Part shown: in pieces, positions 1,798 to 60,966 of the stretch
Layout of the letters: every line of letters starts with the position of its first letter
Numbering within the stretch: the stretch's first letter is position 1
Assembly: GCA_001447805.1 (NCBI GenBank)
Contig: CP013099.1
Coordinates: 2,115,181-2,179,180 of the forward strand
Direction: 5' to 3'
DNA length: 64,000 nucleotides
DNA from: Candidatus Tenderia electrophaga
GTDB lineage: Bacteria > Pseudomonadota > Gammaproteobacteria > Tenderiales > Tenderiaceae
Program-made: the position numbers and the translations under genes
Notes under the pieces: generated by a model
Told to the model about the DNA's origin: nothing
The model's database searches: none
Seen by the model: the letters and a program-made list of their open reading frames with translations, nothing else

Positions 1798-3037
1798 AGC
1801 GCAGCGCCTCCGCCGGCTGGGTGCGCGAGGCGCGCCAGGCGGGATACACAGTGGCCGCCAGGCACAGCACAAACGCCACCACGCTGATGGTGACGATGTC
1901 TGCGCCGCGCATCTCCGAGGGCAGATCGCTGATGTAGTAGACATCGGGCGACAGGAATTTCATGCCCAGGGCCCGTTCGATGGCCGGTACGATCACCTCC
2001 ACGTTGGAGGCCAGGGCGACACCGCCCGCCACCCCCAGCAGCGTACCGAACAAGCCGATCACCACCCCCTGGACGATGAAGATGCGCATAATCGCGCCGG
2101 GGCTGATGCCCAAGGTGCGCAGGATGGCGATATCGGCCTTCTTATCGGTGACGACCATCACCAGGGTGGAGACGATATTGAAGGCGGCCACCGCCACGAT
2201 CAGAGTCAAAATCACAAACATCACAATCTTCTCGGTCTTCACCGCGCGAAAGAAATTGACGTGTTGACGGGTCCAGTCGGTGATCACAAAACCGTGCGGC
2301 AAATCCTGCACCATGAGCTGGGTCAGGTAGGGGGCCTCGAACATGTCGTCGAGCTTGAGCCGCACGCCGCTGACCTGGCCCGGCTGCAGGAACAGCTTGG
2401 CGGCGTCCTCGATATGAATCAGGGCCAGGGCGCTGTCGAATTCATACATGCCGGCCTCGAATACCCCGGCCACGCTAAAGCGTTTCAAGCGCGGCATAAT
2501 GCCGATGGGCGTGACACTGGCCTGGGGCGTCACCAAGGTCACCTTGTCGCCCACCCTGACCCCCAGTTGGCGCGCCAGCTCCTGCCCCAGAATGATGTTG
2601 AACGCACCGGCCTTAAGGTCACTCAGGGCGCCGGCCACCATGGTCTGATCGAGGGTGGATACCTGCGGTTCCAATGTCGGTGCGACACCGCGAATGATTG
2701 AACCACTGACCCCGGCGCCGGCGGTCAGCATCCCTTCGCCGCGCACGAAAGGCGCCATGCCCTGGATCTGGGGATAGCGCTGCAGATACGGATCCAGACG
2801 CTGCCAGCGCTCCAGGCCGTCGCTGGCGCTGCTCACCACCATGTGCGAGGCCACGCCCAGGATACGCGTGCGCAGCTCCTGCTCGAAACCGTTCATCACC
2901 GACAGCACGGTGATCAGCGCCGTCACCCCCAGGGCGATCCCGGCGATGGAGATGAATGAGATAAAGGAAATAAAGTGGTTGCGCCGTTTGGCACGGGTGT
3001 AGCGCAGACCGATAAACAGTTCCAGGGGTTTAAACAT
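1790..3037 (-). CDS. lipoprotein-releasing ABC transporter permease (LolC/LolE family; single permease)
   Basis: 415 aa with MacB-like periplasmic domain and FtsX-type 4-TM topology. Immediately upstream of lolD on the same strand. Confidence 0.9.
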
Positions 3038-28135: not shown

Positions 28136-28147
28136 CTATACTTTACC

Positions 28148-28260
28148 TGGCGGAGAAGGGTGAGCAAGGTTTCTATCAAAGCCAACGGTTTGGCTTTGAT
28201 CCTTGCGAACGCCCGAGCCTCTGGCGCGGGCTGGATGGTCACCGACTGAACCGCCAAATG
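28148..28260 (-). other. tRNA-Ser 3'-end-like fragment (degenerate tandem copy or att-like remnant)
   Basis: Minus-strand sequence ends ...CACCCTTCTCCGCCA, identical over 12 nt (CCTTCTCCGCCA) to the 3' acceptor and CCA end of the adjacent tRNA-Ser(GGA). No matching 5' acceptor strand and no T-arm. Contains internal hairpin ATCAAAGCCAA/TTGGCTTTGAT. Confidence 0.5.
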
Positions 28261-28290
28261 AAAAAAGCCAGCTGTTTAAGCTGGCTTTTG
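28261..28290 (-). terminator. rho-independent terminator immediately after tRNA-Ser(GGA)
   Basis: AGCCAGC-ttaaaca-GCTGGCT hairpin followed by T6 on the minus strand. Confidence 0.75.
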
Positions 28291-28294
28291 AGTC

Positions 28295-28384
28295 TGGCGG
28301 AGAAGGAGGGATTCGAACCCTCGATACGCTATTAACGTATACACACTTTCCAGGCGTGCTCCTTCAACCACTCGGACACTTCTC
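28295..28384 (-). tRNA. tRNA-Ser (anticodon GGA)
   Basis: Reverse complement GGAGAAGTGTCCGAGTGGTTGAAGGAGCACGCCTGGAAAGTGTGTATACGTTAATAGCGTATCGAGGGTTCGAATCCCTCCTTCTCCGCCA. 7-bp acceptor stem, anticodon loop CTGGAAA, long variable arm, GTTCGAATC T-loop, encoded CCA. Confidence 0.9.
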
Positions 28385-28398
28385 CTTTAAGGCGCGCA

Positions 28399-58145: not shown

Positions 58146-58772
58146 ATGCAAAAAATCGTCTTTACCCTATTGGTGGTGCTCTGCTGTGGCGTAACGGCCC
58201 AGGCCGATGAGCATAAAATTCTGGTACTGGGCGACAGCCTCAGCGCCGCCTTCGGCATCAGCCAGGAACAAGGCTGGGTGGCCCTGCTACAACAGCGGCT
58301 CACGCGCACTGGTGAAAAGTATCAGGTCATCAATGCCAGCATCAGCGGCGAGACCACCGCCGGCGGGCTGTCACGCCTGCCCGCGCTGCTGCAACGGCAT
58401 GAGCCCGACATCGTAATCTTAGAGCTGGGCGCCAACGACGGTCTGCGCGGCCTGTCACTGAATGACATGCACGCCAACCTCGCGCGGATGATCGAACTTT
58501 CCCGGGCCCGCGGGGCCGAGGTGCTGCTGCTGGGTATGCAGTTGCCGCCCAACTACGGCCCCACCTACACGCGTCAGTTTCACGAAGTGTATGCCCGGCT
58601 GGCCGAGAGCGAAGACGTCGCTCTGGTCCCGTTTCTGCTCGCGGGGGTGGCGCAGCAGCGCTCACTGTTCCAGGCCGACGGCCTGCATCCGAGCGCCGCG
58701 GCACAGGATGAACTGCTCGAAAATGTGTGGGACAAGCTACAGTCACTGCTTACAACCAGCGGCGCCGTCTAA
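58146..58772 (+). CDS. tesA: SGNH/GDSL arylesterase, acyl-CoA thioesterase I-like (TesA)
   Basis: Start MQKIVFTLLVVLCCGVTAQA (signal peptide), GDSLSA block I, ...GANDG... block III, DGLHPS block V. Track ORF 57828 start rejected. Confidence 0.88.
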   Translation: MQKIVFTLLVVLCCGVTAQADEHKILVLGDSLSAAFGISQEQGWVALLQQRLTRTGEKYQVINASISGETTAGGLSRLPALLQRHEPDIVILELGANDGLRGLSLNDMHANLARMIELSRARGAEVLLLGMQLPPNYGPTYTRQFHEVYARLAESEDVALVPFLLAGVAQQRSLFQADGLHPSAAAQDELLENVWDKLQSLLTTSGAV

Positions 58773-59730
58773 ACAGCCATATCTGCAGCCCCACCAGCAC
58801 CACCAGAAACAGAATCACCACTTCAAAACCATAGGCGTACTCGGCGCCGGGGATGCCGCCCACGTTGATACCCAACAGCCCGGTCAGAAATCCCAAGGGC
58901 AGGAACACCGCCGCCACCAGCGATAACACATACATGCGGTTGTTCATCTGCTCCGAGAGTCGATTATTCAACTCCTCCTGCACCACGCCGGCGCGATCGC
59001 GCGCCGCCTCCAGGTCCTCCACATAGCGCACTACGCGGTCGGTGATTTCACGCAGGCGGATGCGGTCATTGTCCGACAACCACTCGACTCTTTCTTGGGC
59101 CAAGCGAGCCATGGCCTCGCGCTGGGGTGACAGGTAGCGCCGCAGACCGATTACTTCCATGCGCATGCGGGCCAGTTCGTGGCGCAGTTGCGCCCGCTCT
59201 GATTCCACCACCTCGTTTTCGAGCCGATCCACCTCTTCTTCGATGGCGTCGATCGCATCCGCCATACGCACCACCAGGCGATCGGCCAGGTCGACCAACA
59301 GTTCGCCCGGTGTACCAGGTCCGTCACCGCGATCGATGGACTCGCGCACATCAACAATAGAGAGCAGACGCCGGCGCCGGGTGGTGATCACACGCCGATC
59401 CTCCACCCACAGGCGGAGCGCCACCATGTCCTCGGGATCGGCCCCCGGGTTGGTATTGACGCCGCGCAGCATCACCAGCAGGCCGTCTTTCAGGGCGGTA
59501 CTGCGCGGACGCGTCTCATCGGCCAACAGCGCATCACAGACCACCTTATCGACGCCGCTGTCCTGACGCAGCCAGCGCTGTGCCTCGGCATGCGTAAAAT
59601 CCAGGTGCACCCACAAAAACCCCTCGTCCGAGCGCCATTGTTGAAGGCCCTGCCAGTCCAGCGGGGTACCGCCGCCCTTGCCGTCGAGGGCATAGGCAGC
59701 AATCAGTCCATCTTGCTCGTCCATGGTCAA
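58750..59730 (-). CDS. zntB: CorA-family zinc transporter ZntB-like
   Basis: 326 aa, two C-terminal TM helices, GINVGG in place of GMN (LLGINVGGIPG). Confidence 0.8.
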   Translation of the reverse strand: MTMDEQDGLIAAYALDGKGGGTPLDWQGLQQWRSDEGFLWVHLDFTHAEAQRWLRQDSGVDKVVCDALLADETRPRSTALKDGLLVMLRGVNTNPGADPEDMVALRLWVEDRRVITTRRRRLLSIVDVRESIDRGDGPGTPGELLVDLADRLVVRMADAIDAIEEEVDRLENEVVESERAQLRHELARMRMEVIGLRRYLSPQREAMARLAQERVEWLSDNDRIRLREITDRVVRYVEDLEAARDRAGVVQEELNNRLSEQMNNRMYVLSLVAAVFLPLGFLTGLLGINVGGIPGAEYAYGFEVVILFLVVLVGLQIWLFRRRRWL

Positions 59731-59810
59731 TTCCCGGATCGTTGTTTAGTATGAGGACTATAACCGACTTGGGCGCAGCGGCAATAACACGCGCTCGACC
59801 GGGCCATAGC

Positions 59811-59850
59811 GCAAAACAAAAAGGGCCGACACACTTGTGTATCAGCCCTT
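59811..59850 (-). terminator. rho-independent terminator (distal, after tRNA-Ser(TGA) fragment)
   Basis: Minus strand AGGGCTGATACACAAGTGTGTCGGCCCT hairpin followed by TTTTTGTTTTG. Confidence 0.7.
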
Positions 59851-59863
59851 TGTTGAAAAGTAA

Positions 59864-60000
59864 TGGCGGAGAGGCAGGGATTACTCGGGCGTCCGCCCTC
59901 GCCCTACGGGCCAGCCTCGCTCCGCTCCGCTGTTCTCCCTCCGCTGCGCTACGGTCGTCGAACCGAAGGGTTCTCATCAAAACCTGCCCCACTCCAAAAA
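59864..60000 (-). other. tRNA-Ser 3'-end-like fragment (19-nt duplicate of tRNA-Ser(TGA) 3' end plus degenerate body)
   Basis: Plus-strand TGGCGGAGAGGCAGGGATT at 59864..59882 is identical to 60039..60057 (3' end of tRNA-Ser TGA). No intact cloverleaf, but a GGAGGGA segment could pair 6/7 with the CCTCTCC 3' strand. Confidence 0.5.
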
Positions 60001-60034
60001 CAAAAAAGGCCGCCTCTGGGGCGGCCTTTTGTAT
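60001..60034 (-). terminator. rho-independent terminator immediately after tRNA-Ser(TGA)
   Basis: GGCCGCC-tctgg-GGCGGCC hairpin flanked by A6 and T4..T4 (bidirectional potential); on minus strand followed by TTTTTTG. Confidence 0.75.
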
Positions 60035-60038
60035 TTTA

Positions 60039-60128
60039 TGGCGGAGAGGCAGGGATTCGAACCCTGGGAAGGTTTAACCCTTCAACGGTTTTCAAGACCG
60101 CCGCTTTCGACCGCTCAGCCACCTCTCC
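60039..60128 (-). tRNA. tRNA-Ser (anticodon TGA)
   Basis: Reverse complement GGAGAGGTGGCTGAGCGGTCGAAAGCGGCGGTCTTGAAAACCGTTGAAGGGTTAAACCTTCCCAGGGTTCGAATCCCTGCCTCTCCGCCA. 7-bp acceptor, anticodon loop CTTGAAA, long variable arm, GTTCGAATC T-loop, encoded CCA. Confidence 0.9.
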
Positions 60129-60142
60129 GCAGAAGCGCAAGA

Positions 60143-60153
60143 TGATACCAAAA
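60143..60153 (-). promoter_or_regulatory. candidate extended -10 promoter (TGgTATCAT) of tRNA-Ser(TGA)
   Basis: Minus strand ...TTTTTGGTATCATCTTGCGCTTCTGC-GGAGAGG. TGn-TATCAT 13 nt upstream of the mature 5' end, GC-rich discriminator. Confidence 0.3.
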
Positions 60154-60294
60154 ATTTTCAGGATTTCCAGCACTTGAGGAAAAATTTTGCGATTTAGACC
60201 GGGTATTAATCTAGGGAACCTTTCGTGCTAAACTCGGGTCTCAGAATATGAGTAATTCTCTATGGAATTCAACTTAAACAGGAGTCTGAACACT

Positions 60295-60966
60295 ATGAGA
60301 CCAGTAGAACGTGTGTACGGCGGTGCGATTCCCGCTTCGGCGTCGACCAATAAGGTTCTGCGAAATACCTACATGCTGCTTTCTATGACGCTGCTGTTCA
60401 GCGCCTTGATGGCGGGCGTGTCCATGACCATGCAGATGGGTCCGATGGCACACTTGCTGTCGTTCGTGGGTTCCATCGTGCTGATTTGGTTCGTGCTGCC
60501 GCGCACTGCGAATTCGGCTGCAGGCATCGGTGTGGTGTTTGCCATTACCGGCCTGATGGGCTTCGGTCTTGGGCCCTTGCTCAACGCCTACCTGAGCATG
60601 GCCAACGGTAGCCAGGTGGTGATGACCGCCTTGGGCGGTACCGGTGCCATCTTCCTGGGGCTGTCGGCCTACACGCTGACGACCAAAAAGGATTTCAGCT
60701 TCCTGGGCGGCATGCTGTTCGTCGGTATTCTGGTGGTGCTCCTCGGCGCTATTGTGAATATCTTTCTGGCCATTCCGTTCGTATCGATGGCCATCTCCGC
60801 TGCGGTAATCCTGATCATGAGTGGTTTCATCCTGTATGACACCAGCCGCATCATCAACGGCGGGGAGACCAATTACATCATGGCGACGGTCTCTTTGTAC
60901 CTGAGCATCTACAACATCTTCGTCAGCCTGCTGCACCTCCTGGGTGCGTTTAACGGCGACGATTAA
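60295..60966 (+). CDS. Bax inhibitor-1/YccA family membrane protein
   Basis: Start MRPVERVYGG preceded by AGGAG. 7 TM, 223 aa, C-terminal ...LGAFNGDD typical of BI-1/YccA. Track ORF start 60262 rejected. Confidence 0.85.
   Translation: MRPVERVYGGAIPASASTNKVLRNTYMLLSMTLLFSALMAGVSMTMQMGPMAHLLSFVGSIVLIWFVLPRTANSAAGIGVVFAITGLMGFGLGPLLNAYLSMANGSQVVMTALGGTGAIFLGLSAYTLTTKKDFSFLGGMLFVGILVVLLGAIVNIFLAIPFVSMAISAAVILIMSGFILYDTSRIINGGETNYIMATVSLYLSIYNIFVSLLHLLGAFNGDD

Follow-up and report, generated by a model that had tools for sequence, protein, structure and literature searches.

Integrative elements that target tRNA genes classically leave, as their signature, direct repeats of the tRNA 3' end beginning in the T-loop. 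Members of the RtT RNA family (Rfam RF00391) also carry the end of a tRNA. E. coli K-12 has four RtT copies (133–137 bits). All four terminate in AATCCTTCCCCCACCACCA, which is identical to the final 19 nt of tRNA-Tyr, and the annotated 3' end of rttR coincides with the CCA of the first of these tails. According to papers that cite Bosl and Kersten 1991, the E. coli RNA has an effect on the amino-acid starvation response. In Actinobacillus pleuropneumoniae, the family members Arrc20 and Arrc21 lie beside Asn and Lys tRNA genes and gave Northern blot signals (PMC4986893).

Here we analyze a 64-kb window (the whole stretch of Candidatus Tenderia electrophaga DNA considered, 64,000 nucleotides) in which the 3' end of a tRNA-Ser gene is repeated downstream from the gene. 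The best overall explanation, to which we assign a probability of roughly 0.8, is that a diverged RtT member stands behind tRNA-Ser(UGA).

The tRNA-Ser(UGA) locus

Reading in the direction of the tRNA, the locus comprises the following features:

60142–60169, minus strand: promoter-like site 5' of tRNA-Ser(UGA), consisting of TGGAAA, a 16-nt spacer, and a TG-extended TATCAT (consensus scan, 9/12)
60039–60128, minus strand: tRNA-Ser(UGA) gene with encoded CCA (ARAGORN; Rfam tRNA model, 60.5 bits)
59996–60030, minus strand: terminator-like hairpin 1, between the tRNA and the element, AAAAGGCCGCC-CCAGA-GGCGGCCTTTT and then the T-run TTGTTTTT (terminator scan, 11 pairs; the hairpin itself is 60030–60004)
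59864–59995, minus strand: RtT-like structured RNA element, 132 nt (Rfam RF00391; profile built without the window copy; alignment with 41 relatives and E. coli RtT)
59864–59882, minus strand: tail of the element, identical to the final 19 nt of tRNA-Ser(UGA), AAUCCCUGCCUCUCCGCCA (repeat search)
59809–59851, minus strand: terminator-like hairpin 2 and then a T-run, after the tail (terminator scan, 14 pairs; the hairpin itself is 59851–59820)

The 19-nt direct repeat of the original prediction is exact. TGGCGGAGAGGCAGGGATT occurs at 60039–60057, at the 3' end of tRNA-Ser(UGA), and again at 59864–59882, with about 155 bp between the two. On the tRNA strand it reads AATCCCTGCCTCTCCGCCA, and it takes in the last bases of the T-loop, the 3' strand of the T-stem, the 3' strand of the acceptor stem, the discriminator, and CCA. 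When up to three mismatches are allowed, the 64-kb window holds one further match, the 3' end of tRNA-Ser(GGA), and shuffled versions of the window gave a mean of 0.01 matches. The tail is identical to the tRNA at 19 of 19 positions, whereas the flanks past the CCA agree at 7 of 20, which is the chance level.

The terminators that had been proposed after the tRNA and after the fragment were both detected on the minus strand as hairpins with T-runs. Hairpin 1, a strong-looking intrinsic terminator, precedes the element, and no separate promoter for the element was found at the locus; expression of the element would therefore depend on read-through. Judging from its match to the consensus, the TGGAAA/TATCAT site may be the promoter from which the element is transcribed. 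A second candidate, picked out by eye and lying inside and just after the tRNA (TTCGAA-17-TAAAAT), was rejected because it would fire into hairpin 1 and is thus of no help as a promoter for the element.

The same arrangement had been claimed for the other tRNA-Ser locus of the window. The architecture is indeed shared, but the insert behind tRNA-Ser(GGA), at 28140–28260, has no similarity to RtT that Rfam, nhmmer, or blastn could detect, and no synteny was found for that locus via homologs of the neighboring genes.

Assignment to the RtT family

The sequence at 59864–59995 is very probably an RtT homolog. The body of the fragment had been described as degenerate; it is instead a conserved structured element, as indicated by the Rfam match, the alignment with relatives, and the covariation. 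The RF00391 covariance model gives 34.3 bits (E 5.4e-5 in a 451-nt search) over model positions 1–130 of 130, and the match spans 59864–60002, with seven T-run bases 5' of P1 included. This score falls short of the Rfam gathering threshold of 45 bits, and the copy is absent from a scan of the window at that threshold. A profile of 41 relatives, with the window copy left out, recovers it at E 1.8e-15 as the sole site in the 64-kb window.

The sequence blocks of RtT are present in order, namely AUGAGAA...GGUUCGA (59971–59978 and 59960–59964), CCCGNAGGGYGAG (59898–59910), and GAGUAAUCC (59878–59886). Read as a whole, the element carries GAUGAGAA-P2-GGUUCGAC, then CCCGNAGGGYGAG, then P5 followed by GAGUAAUCC. 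It lies behind the tRNA on the same strand, the 5' strand of P1 beginning 43 nt past the CCA of tRNA-Ser(UGA). As is typical of RtT, the 3' tail is the last 19 nt of the tRNA including CCA (19/19), and the helix that closes the element is made by a 5' strand that pairs with the portion of the tail corresponding to the T-stem (4 + 7 pairs in both the minimum-energy and the centroid fold). The parts of the element, other than the tail, are as follows:

59983–59995, minus strand: 5' strand of P1, GGAGUGGGGCAGG, pairing with CCUGCCU and CUCC of the tail (minimum-energy and centroid folds; family covariation)
59960–59978, minus strand: conserved box GAUGAGAA, overlapping hairpin P2 (GAACC-CUUC-GGUUC) (invariant columns in alignment A2)
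59911–59956, minus strand: P3/P4 region (segment folding)
59898–59910, minus strand: conserved junction CCCGUAGGGCGAG with the mini-hairpin GCCC-GUA-GGGC (almost no variation in A2; 93.9% pairing in helix 4)
59887–59898, minus strand: hairpin P5 (GGGC-GGAC-GCCC), then GAGUAA at 59881–59886 (segment folding and sequence)

In the window copy, P1 has 11 pairs (4 and 7, separated by a 2-nt bulge) and leaves GCCA unpaired. In this predicted fold, P1 together with GCCA has the geometry of the acceptor/T-arm “top half” of a tRNA, with the RtT body replacing the T-loop. P2, the mini-hairpin, and P5 can all form, and an unconstrained fold swaps P2 for an alternative helix. The folding energy of the element alone, for which the minimum-energy fold lacks P2, is no different from that of dinucleotide shuffles (z = 0.00). 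The P3/P4 region folds into two clean hairpins in 39 of 44 relatives but not in the window copy (segment folding), in which P3 is CCG/CGG and P4 is CAGC/GCUG around a 13-nt loop with GGAGC GGAGC GAG, both weak at 3–4 pairs.

Two resemblances to known RNA motifs were considered and set aside. GAUGAG-stem-GAC resembles the core of a hammerhead ribozyme; the position that corresponds to the invariant A14 varies among relatives (C, G, A, or T), and there is no match to an Rfam ribozyme. GGUUCGA could suggest a T-loop motif; its bases are the 3' strand of P2, and there is no closing pair at the right spacing.

Relatives in metagenomes, their tails, and covariation

One scan of metagenome contigs gave 120 near full-length relatives, and for 100 of the 120 the fetched locus contained a same-strand upstream tRNA. 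It should be noted that the relatives were gathered with a search pattern derived from the window copy, so the invariance of the columns in P2 and the boxes is partly built in. The GAUGAGAA/P2 columns in particular were fixed by the pattern, and the E. coli RtT and the Rfam consensus carry the same columns.

The 100 partner tRNAs are those for Gln (34), Lys (29), Ser (25), Tyr (6), Arg (4), Met (1), and Glu (1), and even at Rfam's own threshold the metagenome loci yield RtT calls downstream of tRNAs for Lys, Gln, and Arg and of one tRNA-Ser(UGA). Elements that follow at least 12 kinds of tRNA share the 19-nt boundary, as do tandem arrays. Such arrays are found in L114, L190, and E. coli, and copy number varies widely. 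According to a crude detector, a terminator-like hairpin lies between tRNA and element in 29 of 78 related elements; 17 of the 78 have such hairpins on both sides, preceding the element and following the tail.

The RtT-like tail copies the last 18–19 nt of whichever tRNA precedes it, and the strand that pairs with the tail changes along with it. Tails match the local tRNA at a median of 18 of 19 positions (at least 17/19 in 78 of 100 elements), compared with a median of 12/19 and a maximum of 16/19 against tRNAs for a different amino acid. This specificity extends to tRNAs that share an anticodon, of which the local one is strictly the best match for 73 of 88 elements. The exact run that ends at CCA is 16–20 nt long in 52 of 66 elements, mostly 18–19 nt and never above 20. 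The number of P1 pairs varies within the family, between about 7 and 12, and the P1 duplex averages −16.4 kcal/mol when formed with an element's own tail versus −10.7 kcal/mol with tails taken from elements that follow tRNAs for another amino acid. We found no statement in the open-access literature that the RtT tail and P1 track the identity of the local tRNA, and it may be noted elsewhere.

The helices covary. In alignment A2, pairing is seen in 85.9% of cells (72.3% in shuffles), 145 cells are changed on both sides (61 in shuffles), and the covariation score is 0.348, versus 0.133 in shuffles, a value reached by 0 of 500 shuffles, with slid controls at 0.07–0.09. P1, including the strand that pairs with the tail, covaries across the family. 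G-U pairs are found on the tRNA-sense strand, something for which a signal in double-stranded DNA would not account. Covariation of this strength across the family implies selection on the RNA. MAFFT misaligns P4 and P5, so these two hairpins were judged by separate segment folding. P5 forms with at least 4 pairs in 37 of 44 elements with differing stem sequences, and the P3/P4 hairpins, like P5, recur with different stem sequences.

Thus identified, the element shows that one of the readings offered in the original prediction, a family of small RNAs derived from tRNA 3' ends, was essentially right: the RF00391 match and the relatives in E. coli and in metagenomes identify that family as RtT.

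Close relatives and alternative explanations

Among the relatives compared at the syntenic tRNA-Ser(UGA)-yccA locus, an intact element was seen in Ca. Tenderia electrophaga only. The tail is decayed in L085 (14/19), the element is truncated in L217, the locus is rearranged in L087, and L211, L213, and L215 have no RtT-like element at this site. Constraint in this lineage looks weak. Exact matches to the YccA protein came from the same species only, with an identical intergenic region, and a 96%-identical relative is uninformative about the element because its contigs end within the tRNA. The called neighbors are CorA-like, Bax1-I/YccA, GDSL lipase, ABC transporter, and similar genes; with the CorA-like neighbor as the synteny anchor, no relative exceeded 70% identity, and in none was the gene adjacent to a tRNA.

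This distribution favors the most serious alternative, namely that the window copy is a decaying, nonfunctional RtT relic with little or no transcription, in a family whose units are spread and lost by recombination between the tRNA-end repeats. The weak P3 and P4 (with the short GGAGC repeat in the P4 loop), the lack of any thermodynamic excess, the terminator that precedes the element, and the highly variable copy number of RtT elsewhere all point the same way. However, the tail is perfect while its flanks are at the chance level; P1, P2, the mini-hairpin, P5, and all of the conserved boxes are intact; and the covariation across the family implies selection on the RNA. On balance, we consider decay of this kind unlikely, although it is a genuine contender.

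There is far less to be said for a tandem duplicate of tRNA-Ser that decayed into a pseudogene, as had also been suggested for this locus. The 3' end is identical to that of the tRNA, and the 5' strand of P1 (GGAGUGG-GG-CAGG) resembles the acceptor 5' strand GGAGAGG followed by the T-stem 5' strand CAGGG. But neither ARAGORN nor the Rfam tRNA model finds a tRNA in 59864–59995, or any residual D, anticodon, or variable arm there, and the homologs of the body are elements found downstream of tRNA-Tyr, Lys, Gln, Arg, and Met rather than tRNA-Ser itself. In no family member does identity with the tRNA stretch farther than 20 nt upstream from its CCA end. The relatives examined carry no second tRNA at the syntenic site, where a normal one had been envisaged as the mark of simple pseudogenization. 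We give this explanation very little credence. An ancient tRNA origin of the RtT family as a whole is compatible with these observations.

Least probable of all is that the repeats are attL/attR-like scars of an integrase insertion at the tRNA 3' end whose island has since been deleted, or a functional attB-like core used in repeated integrase events, as had been proposed: the repeat does match the classic tRNA-targeting signature in starting in the T-loop, and the site is polymorphic for presence and absence among relatives, but the repeats are only about 155 bp apart and what lies between them is a conserved RNA family with strand-specific covariation; no integrase family or island cargo was recorded between or beside them among the called genes within ~6 kb; the search pattern that has >120 matches in metagenome contigs has 0 in 2.9 million viral contigs, and blastn against plasmids found none; the 19-nt boundary recurs behind many kinds of tRNA and in tandem arrays; and the copy does not carry the whole T-arm, because the repeat is not accompanied by the T-stem 5' arm or the remainder of the T-loop.

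Proposed processing and implications

For the diverged RtT element preferred here, we suggest, as the likeliest mechanism, a processing route that we hold at somewhat less than even odds. Transcription would begin at the tRNA promoter, read through hairpin 1 into the element, and stop at hairpin 2. P1 and the GCCA overhang would mimic the acceptor/T-arm end of the tRNA, and the enzymes of tRNA 3'-end maturation would trim the 3' end back to CCA, yielding a discrete structured RNA of ~130 nt, and RNase P might cut the 5' end at the base of P1. The tail may be kept identical to the neighboring tRNA by selection on P1, by gene conversion, or by both.

A bolder proposal, which we regard as improbable, is that RtT-like elements are widespread mimics of the top half of their cognate tRNA, with tail and pairing strand kept matched by selection, and that they act in a tRNA-identity-specific manner rather than being mere by-products of processing. 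If that were true, the RNA might titrate, or signal to, a reader of the acceptor end (a synthetase, RelA on the ribosome, a 3'-end nuclease, or a tRNA-targeting toxin), and the insert behind tRNA-Ser(GGA), which is unrelated and has a 12-nt tail, would belong to another family, so far undescribed, that follows the same principle.

For the window itself, the assignment puts a named RNA family in place of an island scar or a pseudogene. It also extends RtT to tRNA-Ser in a Chromatiales-like electroautotroph, where the Rfam threshold misses the copy. The rule that the tail follows the local tRNA offers a testable handle on RtT RNA, the function of which is described as unknown in the open-access literature.

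Comparison with known systems

The consensus of the sX4 sRNA of Xanthomonas (RF02223) consists of a tRNA-Ser, a hairpin, and ...GGGGGGUGAGA, an ending that looks like the 5' strand of an RtT P1 plus the start of the UGAGAA box; its matches to the window are weak, sub-threshold, and mostly a reflection of the tRNA itself. The tRNA “top-half” mimics (the tRNA-like domain of tmRNA and the minihelix substrates of RNase P) resemble the window element in having an acceptor and T-stem helix that ends in the discriminator and CCA. They differ in that the element has a body of ~100 nt in place of a T-loop; the likeness is a structural one suggested by the fold and does not imply membership. The attL/attR repeats of tRNA-targeting elements are likewise direct repeats of a tRNA 3' end from the T-loop onward, whereas at the tRNA-Ser(UGA) locus no integrase or cargo was recorded, no viral or plasmid relatives were found, and a conserved structured RNA lies between the repeats.

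Within the RtT family, Arrc20 and Arrc21 of A. pleuropneumoniae are a precedent for members not confined to tyrT (PMC4986893). Compared with the E. coli RtT, the partner in the window is tRNA-Ser(UGA) rather than tRNA-Tyr, with tail and P1 5' strand switched to match; the element occurs singly rather than in a tandem array, and between it and the tRNA there is a terminator-like hairpin; its P2 is shorter, its P3 and P4 are weak, and its score is under the Rfam gathering threshold; and it belongs to a Chromatiales-like electroautotroph rather than to an enterobacterium. Like rttR at the E. coli tyrT-tyrV locus, it lies directly behind a tRNA on the same strand, with the same sequence blocks, the same closing helix, and a full-length alignment to the model, and the two share the boundary of the 19-nt tail, which starts at AAUCC and includes CCA.

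A repeated tRNA end behind tRNA-Ser(UGA)

The window holds two tRNA genes, both on the minus strand (called by ARAGORN and confirmed by Rfam). The exact 19-mer TGGCGGAGAGGCAGGGATT occurs at the 3' end of one of them, tRNA-Ser(UGA) (60039-60057), and again at 59864-59882, where it reads AATCCCTGCCTCTCCGCCA on the tRNA strand. When up to three mismatches are allowed, the sole further match in the window is the 3' end of tRNA-Ser(GGA); in shuffled versions of the window the mean number of matches is 0.01. The order described in the original prediction (tRNA, terminator, 19-nt copy of the tRNA 3' end, terminator) is borne out by the sequence check. The locus is flanked by genes for a CorA-like protein (58750-59724, minus) and yccA (60295-60966, plus). 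The adjoining YccA/Bax1-I protein is 100% identical to Tel_10010 of Candidatus Tenderia electrophaga, and the intergenic region is identical in other assemblies of this organism.

Features of the two tRNA genes and of the element behind tRNA-Ser(UGA)
28295-28385, minus: tRNA-Ser(GGA) (ARAGORN, Rfam)
60039-60128, minus: tRNA-Ser(UGA) (ARAGORN, Rfam)
60030-60004, minus: hairpin 1, terminator-like with T-run, directly after tRNA-Ser(UGA)
Between hairpin 1 and the 19-nt copy, tRNA strand: G+C-rich stretch of ~115 nt
59983-59995, minus: 5' strand of closing helix P1, GGAGUGGGGCAGG
59971-59978, minus: box, GAUGAGAA
59960-59973, minus: hairpin P2, GAACC-CUUC-GGUUC
59911-59956, minus: hairpins P3/P4, weak
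59898-59910, minus: junction, CCCGUAGGGCGAG
59887-59898, minus: hairpin P5, GGGC-GGAC-GCCC
59881-59886, minus: pre-tail motif, GAGUAA
59864-59882, minus: tail, AAUCCCUGCCUCUCCGCCA
59851-59820, minus: hairpin 2, terminator-like, after the 19-nt copy

Assignment to the RtT RNA family

The feature is a real, new and diverged member of the RtT RNA family that is sub-threshold in Rfam, and not a mobile-element scar; RtT homology, a tail that follows the tRNA, a covarying fold and the place behind a tRNA are all observed. In a permissive Rfam scan of 59750-60200, 59864-60002 (minus) matches RF00391 (RtT RNA) over model positions 1-130 of 130, with 34.3 bits (E 5.4e-5; gathering score 45), and the aligned blocks are AUGAGAAcCUUCG, GGCCCGnAGGGCGAGG, CGAGUAAUCC and the tail. 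A profile built without the window copy recovers it at E 1.8e-15 and has no second match anywhere in the window. The E. coli K-12 tyrT-tyrV locus carries four RtT copies (133-137 bits), each closed by the final 19 nt of tRNA-Tyr, AATCCTTCCCCCACCACCA. Thus, the layout first noticed here is the one that defines the known RtT family, and the earlier suggestion of a family of small RNAs derived from tRNA 3' ends was essentially correct.

Relatives and the tail rule

A metagenome search with a pattern built from the conserved blocks (TGAGAACC N2-6 GGTTCGA N30-60 AGGGYGA) returned at least 120 stretches, about a dozen of which are chance matches in coding DNA. Using a profile from 42 distinct elements (alignment A2) and a cut-off of E ≤ 1e-6, we obtained 143 hits in 109 loci among the matches listed; 120 of these count as near full-length, and for 100 of the 120 the fetched locus includes a tRNA upstream on the same strand. 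The partners, again among the matches listed, are Lys(UUU) (29 elements), Gln(UUG) (24), Ser(GGA) (10), Gln(CUG) (10), Ser(UGA) (nine), Ser(CGA) (six), Tyr (six, four of them from E. coli), Arg (four), Met (one) and Glu (one). Among the loci listed, RtT scores above the Rfam gathering threshold behind Lys, Gln, Arg and one Ser(UGA) tRNA, and in Actinobacillus pleuropneumoniae expressed RtT members adjoin Asn and Lys tRNA genes (PMC4986893), so the link of RtT to several kinds of tRNA operon was already known. Tandem RtT-like arrays, reaching four or more copies, occur in some metagenome loci (L114 5213-5795, L190 6236-6686, L133, L099, L126, L138 and L166); the L114 array lies behind tRNA-Gln with a 149-nt period. 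In Lys-Val tRNA operons (L130, L172, L183, L186) the RtT-like units stand behind tRNA-Lys, never behind tRNA-Val.

Among the matches listed, the tail and the final 19 nt of the tRNA upstream of it agree at a median of 18 positions (19/19 in 22 cases; exact-pattern set), versus a median of 12 and a maximum of 16 for tRNAs of another amino acid; at least 17 of 19 positions match in 78 of the 100 near full-length elements. In 73 of 88 listed cases no rival with the same anticodon and a different 19-mer matches as well as the local tRNA, which ties in nine and loses in six. Of 66 listed first elements, 52 have an exact run of 16-20 nt up to the CCA, chiefly 18-19, and none has one above 20. The repeat continues for at least 13 nt beyond the CCA in 20 of these 66 (spacer or terminator co-duplicated), the rest showing chance identity. 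In the window, identity past the CCA is 7/20, while the 19 tail bases equal those of tRNA-Ser(UGA). Because these bases are kept although the adjoining DNA has fully diverged, the comparison favours constraint or gene conversion over recent duplication. It is the general rule that the tail follows its tRNA that is worth pursuing; the locus itself is of modest interest.

Structure across the family and in the window

P1 forms between the tail and a complementary strand immediately 5' of the GAUGAGAA box. Its mean duplex energy is −16.4 kcal/mol with the own tail and −10.7 with foreign tails (from elements whose tRNA serves another amino acid), and in 33 of 42 elements the own tail ranks above at least 90% of the foreign ones. 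Pairs were counted on A2 for P1, P2, P3 and a GCCC/GGGY mini-hairpin, against 500 shuffles.

Pair counts in A2, observed and shuffled
Standard-pair cells: 85.9%, 72.3%
Cells changed on both sides: 145, 61
Covariation score: 0.348, 0.133

None of the 500 shuffles reached the observed covariation score, and sliding the partner column by 1-3 positions as a control gave 0.07-0.09. Both-side changes occur in 7/9 pairs of P1 and 6/6 of P3; P2 is invariant, but it was fixed beforehand by the search pattern. G-U pairs are common on the tRNA-sense strand, as expected of an RNA transcribed in the tRNA direction. P4 and P5 were assessed by per-segment folding because MAFFT misaligns both: two separate hairpins lie between GGUUCGA and CCCG in 39 of 44 elements, P5 has at least four pairs in 37 of 44, and the P3/P4 and P5 stem sequences vary widely among them.

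In the folded window copy, P1 consists of GGAG/CUCC and GGGCAGG/CCUGCCU pairs with a 2-nt bulge and an unpaired GCCA, and its 5' strand resembles an acceptor 5' strand followed by a T-stem 5' strand. As modelled, P1 with its overhang has the geometry of a coaxial acceptor/T-stem tRNA half, with the RtT body in the T-loop's place. P3 and P4 have only 3-4 pairs in segment folding; a tandem GGAGC GGAGC GAG run (59915-59928, minus), possibly from slippage in a decaying stem, lies in the P4 loop, in place of the clean P4 hairpin of relatives. Folded by itself, the element is no more stable than its shuffles (z = 0.00), and P2 is missing from the unconstrained fold; the more negative z-scores of longer stretches are due largely to the flanking terminators.

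The same locus in relatives

We compared the tRNA-Ser(UGA)-yccA locus in organisms whose YccA is 80-85% identical. The element is present with a conserved core in L085 (tail decayed to 14/19, P1 degraded), decayed and truncated in L217, and absent from L211, L213 and L215. L087, with YccA 85% identical, has no element 3' of tRNA-Ser and a rearranged copy upstream of the intact tRNA: at ~2665-2830 (minus; also in L088), a duplicate of the tRNA-Ser promoter and first ~21 nt of the tRNA is joined at GGTCGAC to P3-P5 of an RtT-like body. The arrangement resembles a product of recombination between the D-loop of the tRNA (GAGCGGTCGA) and the GGTTCGAC box of RtT. In the closest non-identical relative (L083, L084; YccA 96% identical), contigs stop inside tRNA-Ser(UGA), just 5' of the T-arm, probably an assembly break at sequence common to tRNA-Ser genes. 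The synteny comparison proposed earlier thus finds the element decayed, truncated, absent or rearranged; it is evolutionarily labile in the Tenderia lineage, and the window's copy is the most intact.

That the window copy is itself a decaying relic is a real possibility, given the weak P3/P4, the GGAGC repeat, the z of 0.00 and this lability. Tandem duplication and decay of a tRNA, as originally offered, is not supported: the body has no cloverleaf remnants and is common to elements behind unrelated tRNAs. Integrase-mediated events at tRNA-Ser can be set aside: no integrase family is recorded among called genes within ~6 kb of the locus, there is no cargo, no relatives of the element were found in viral contigs by pattern search or in plasmids by blastn, and the insert is a conserved RNA.

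The tRNA-Ser(GGA) locus

The original prediction gave both tRNA-Ser loci the same arrangement. The shared architecture is real, but no likeness between the two inserts was detected. Behind tRNA-Ser(GGA) (28140-28260, minus) stand a terminator, an insert of ~110 nt, a 12-nt copy of the tRNA end (CCTTCTCCGCCA) and a terminator. The insert, closed by UGGCGG...CCGCCA, folds strongly (z = −7.9 with its terminators), gives no detectable match to RtT in Rfam, nhmmer and blastn comparisons, and matches no Rfam family above noise. Neighbours of this site are not syntenic in relatives; at L218 661-1840 a RES/Xre toxin-antitoxin pair, upstream of a thiamine-binding protein gene (protein 90% identical), holds the position of tRNA-Ser(GGA) and its insert. 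RF02223 (sX4) gives weak, sub-threshold matches at window 28246-28387 and L087 2517-2676. The sX4 consensus is a tRNA-Ser plus a hairpin and ...GGGGGGUGAGA; this final part resembles the 5' strand of P1 and the first bases of the UGAGAA box in RtT-like elements behind tRNA-Ser(GGA) (L097, L143), so sX4 may overlap an RtT-like element.

Proposed expression and comparison with E. coli

A promoter scan found no promoter of the element's own, which suggests that the tRNA promoter most likely drives transcription and that the polymerase would have to read through hairpin 1. A crude detector places a terminator-like hairpin between tRNA and element in 29 of 78 relatives (13 of 24 Ser-linked ones), and hairpins on both sides in 17 of 78, among the matches listed. 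The nucleases of tRNA 3'-end maturation should also trim the P1-held tail with its CCA; the annotated E. coli rttR, which starts 8 nt past tyrV and whose 3' end falls on the first tail's CCA, agrees with such trimming. Minihelices of acceptor and T-arm are established substrates of bacterial RNase P, and for this reason a cut at the P1 base may also occur. Papers citing Bosl and Kersten 1991 credit E. coli RtT RNA with an influence on the amino-acid starvation response. The E. coli tyrT repeats are paralleled by the tandem arrays of metagenome loci, and the window copy shares their identity boundary, from AAUCC in the T-loop; the difference is that the copied sequence is tRNA-Tyr in E. coli and tRNA-Ser here.
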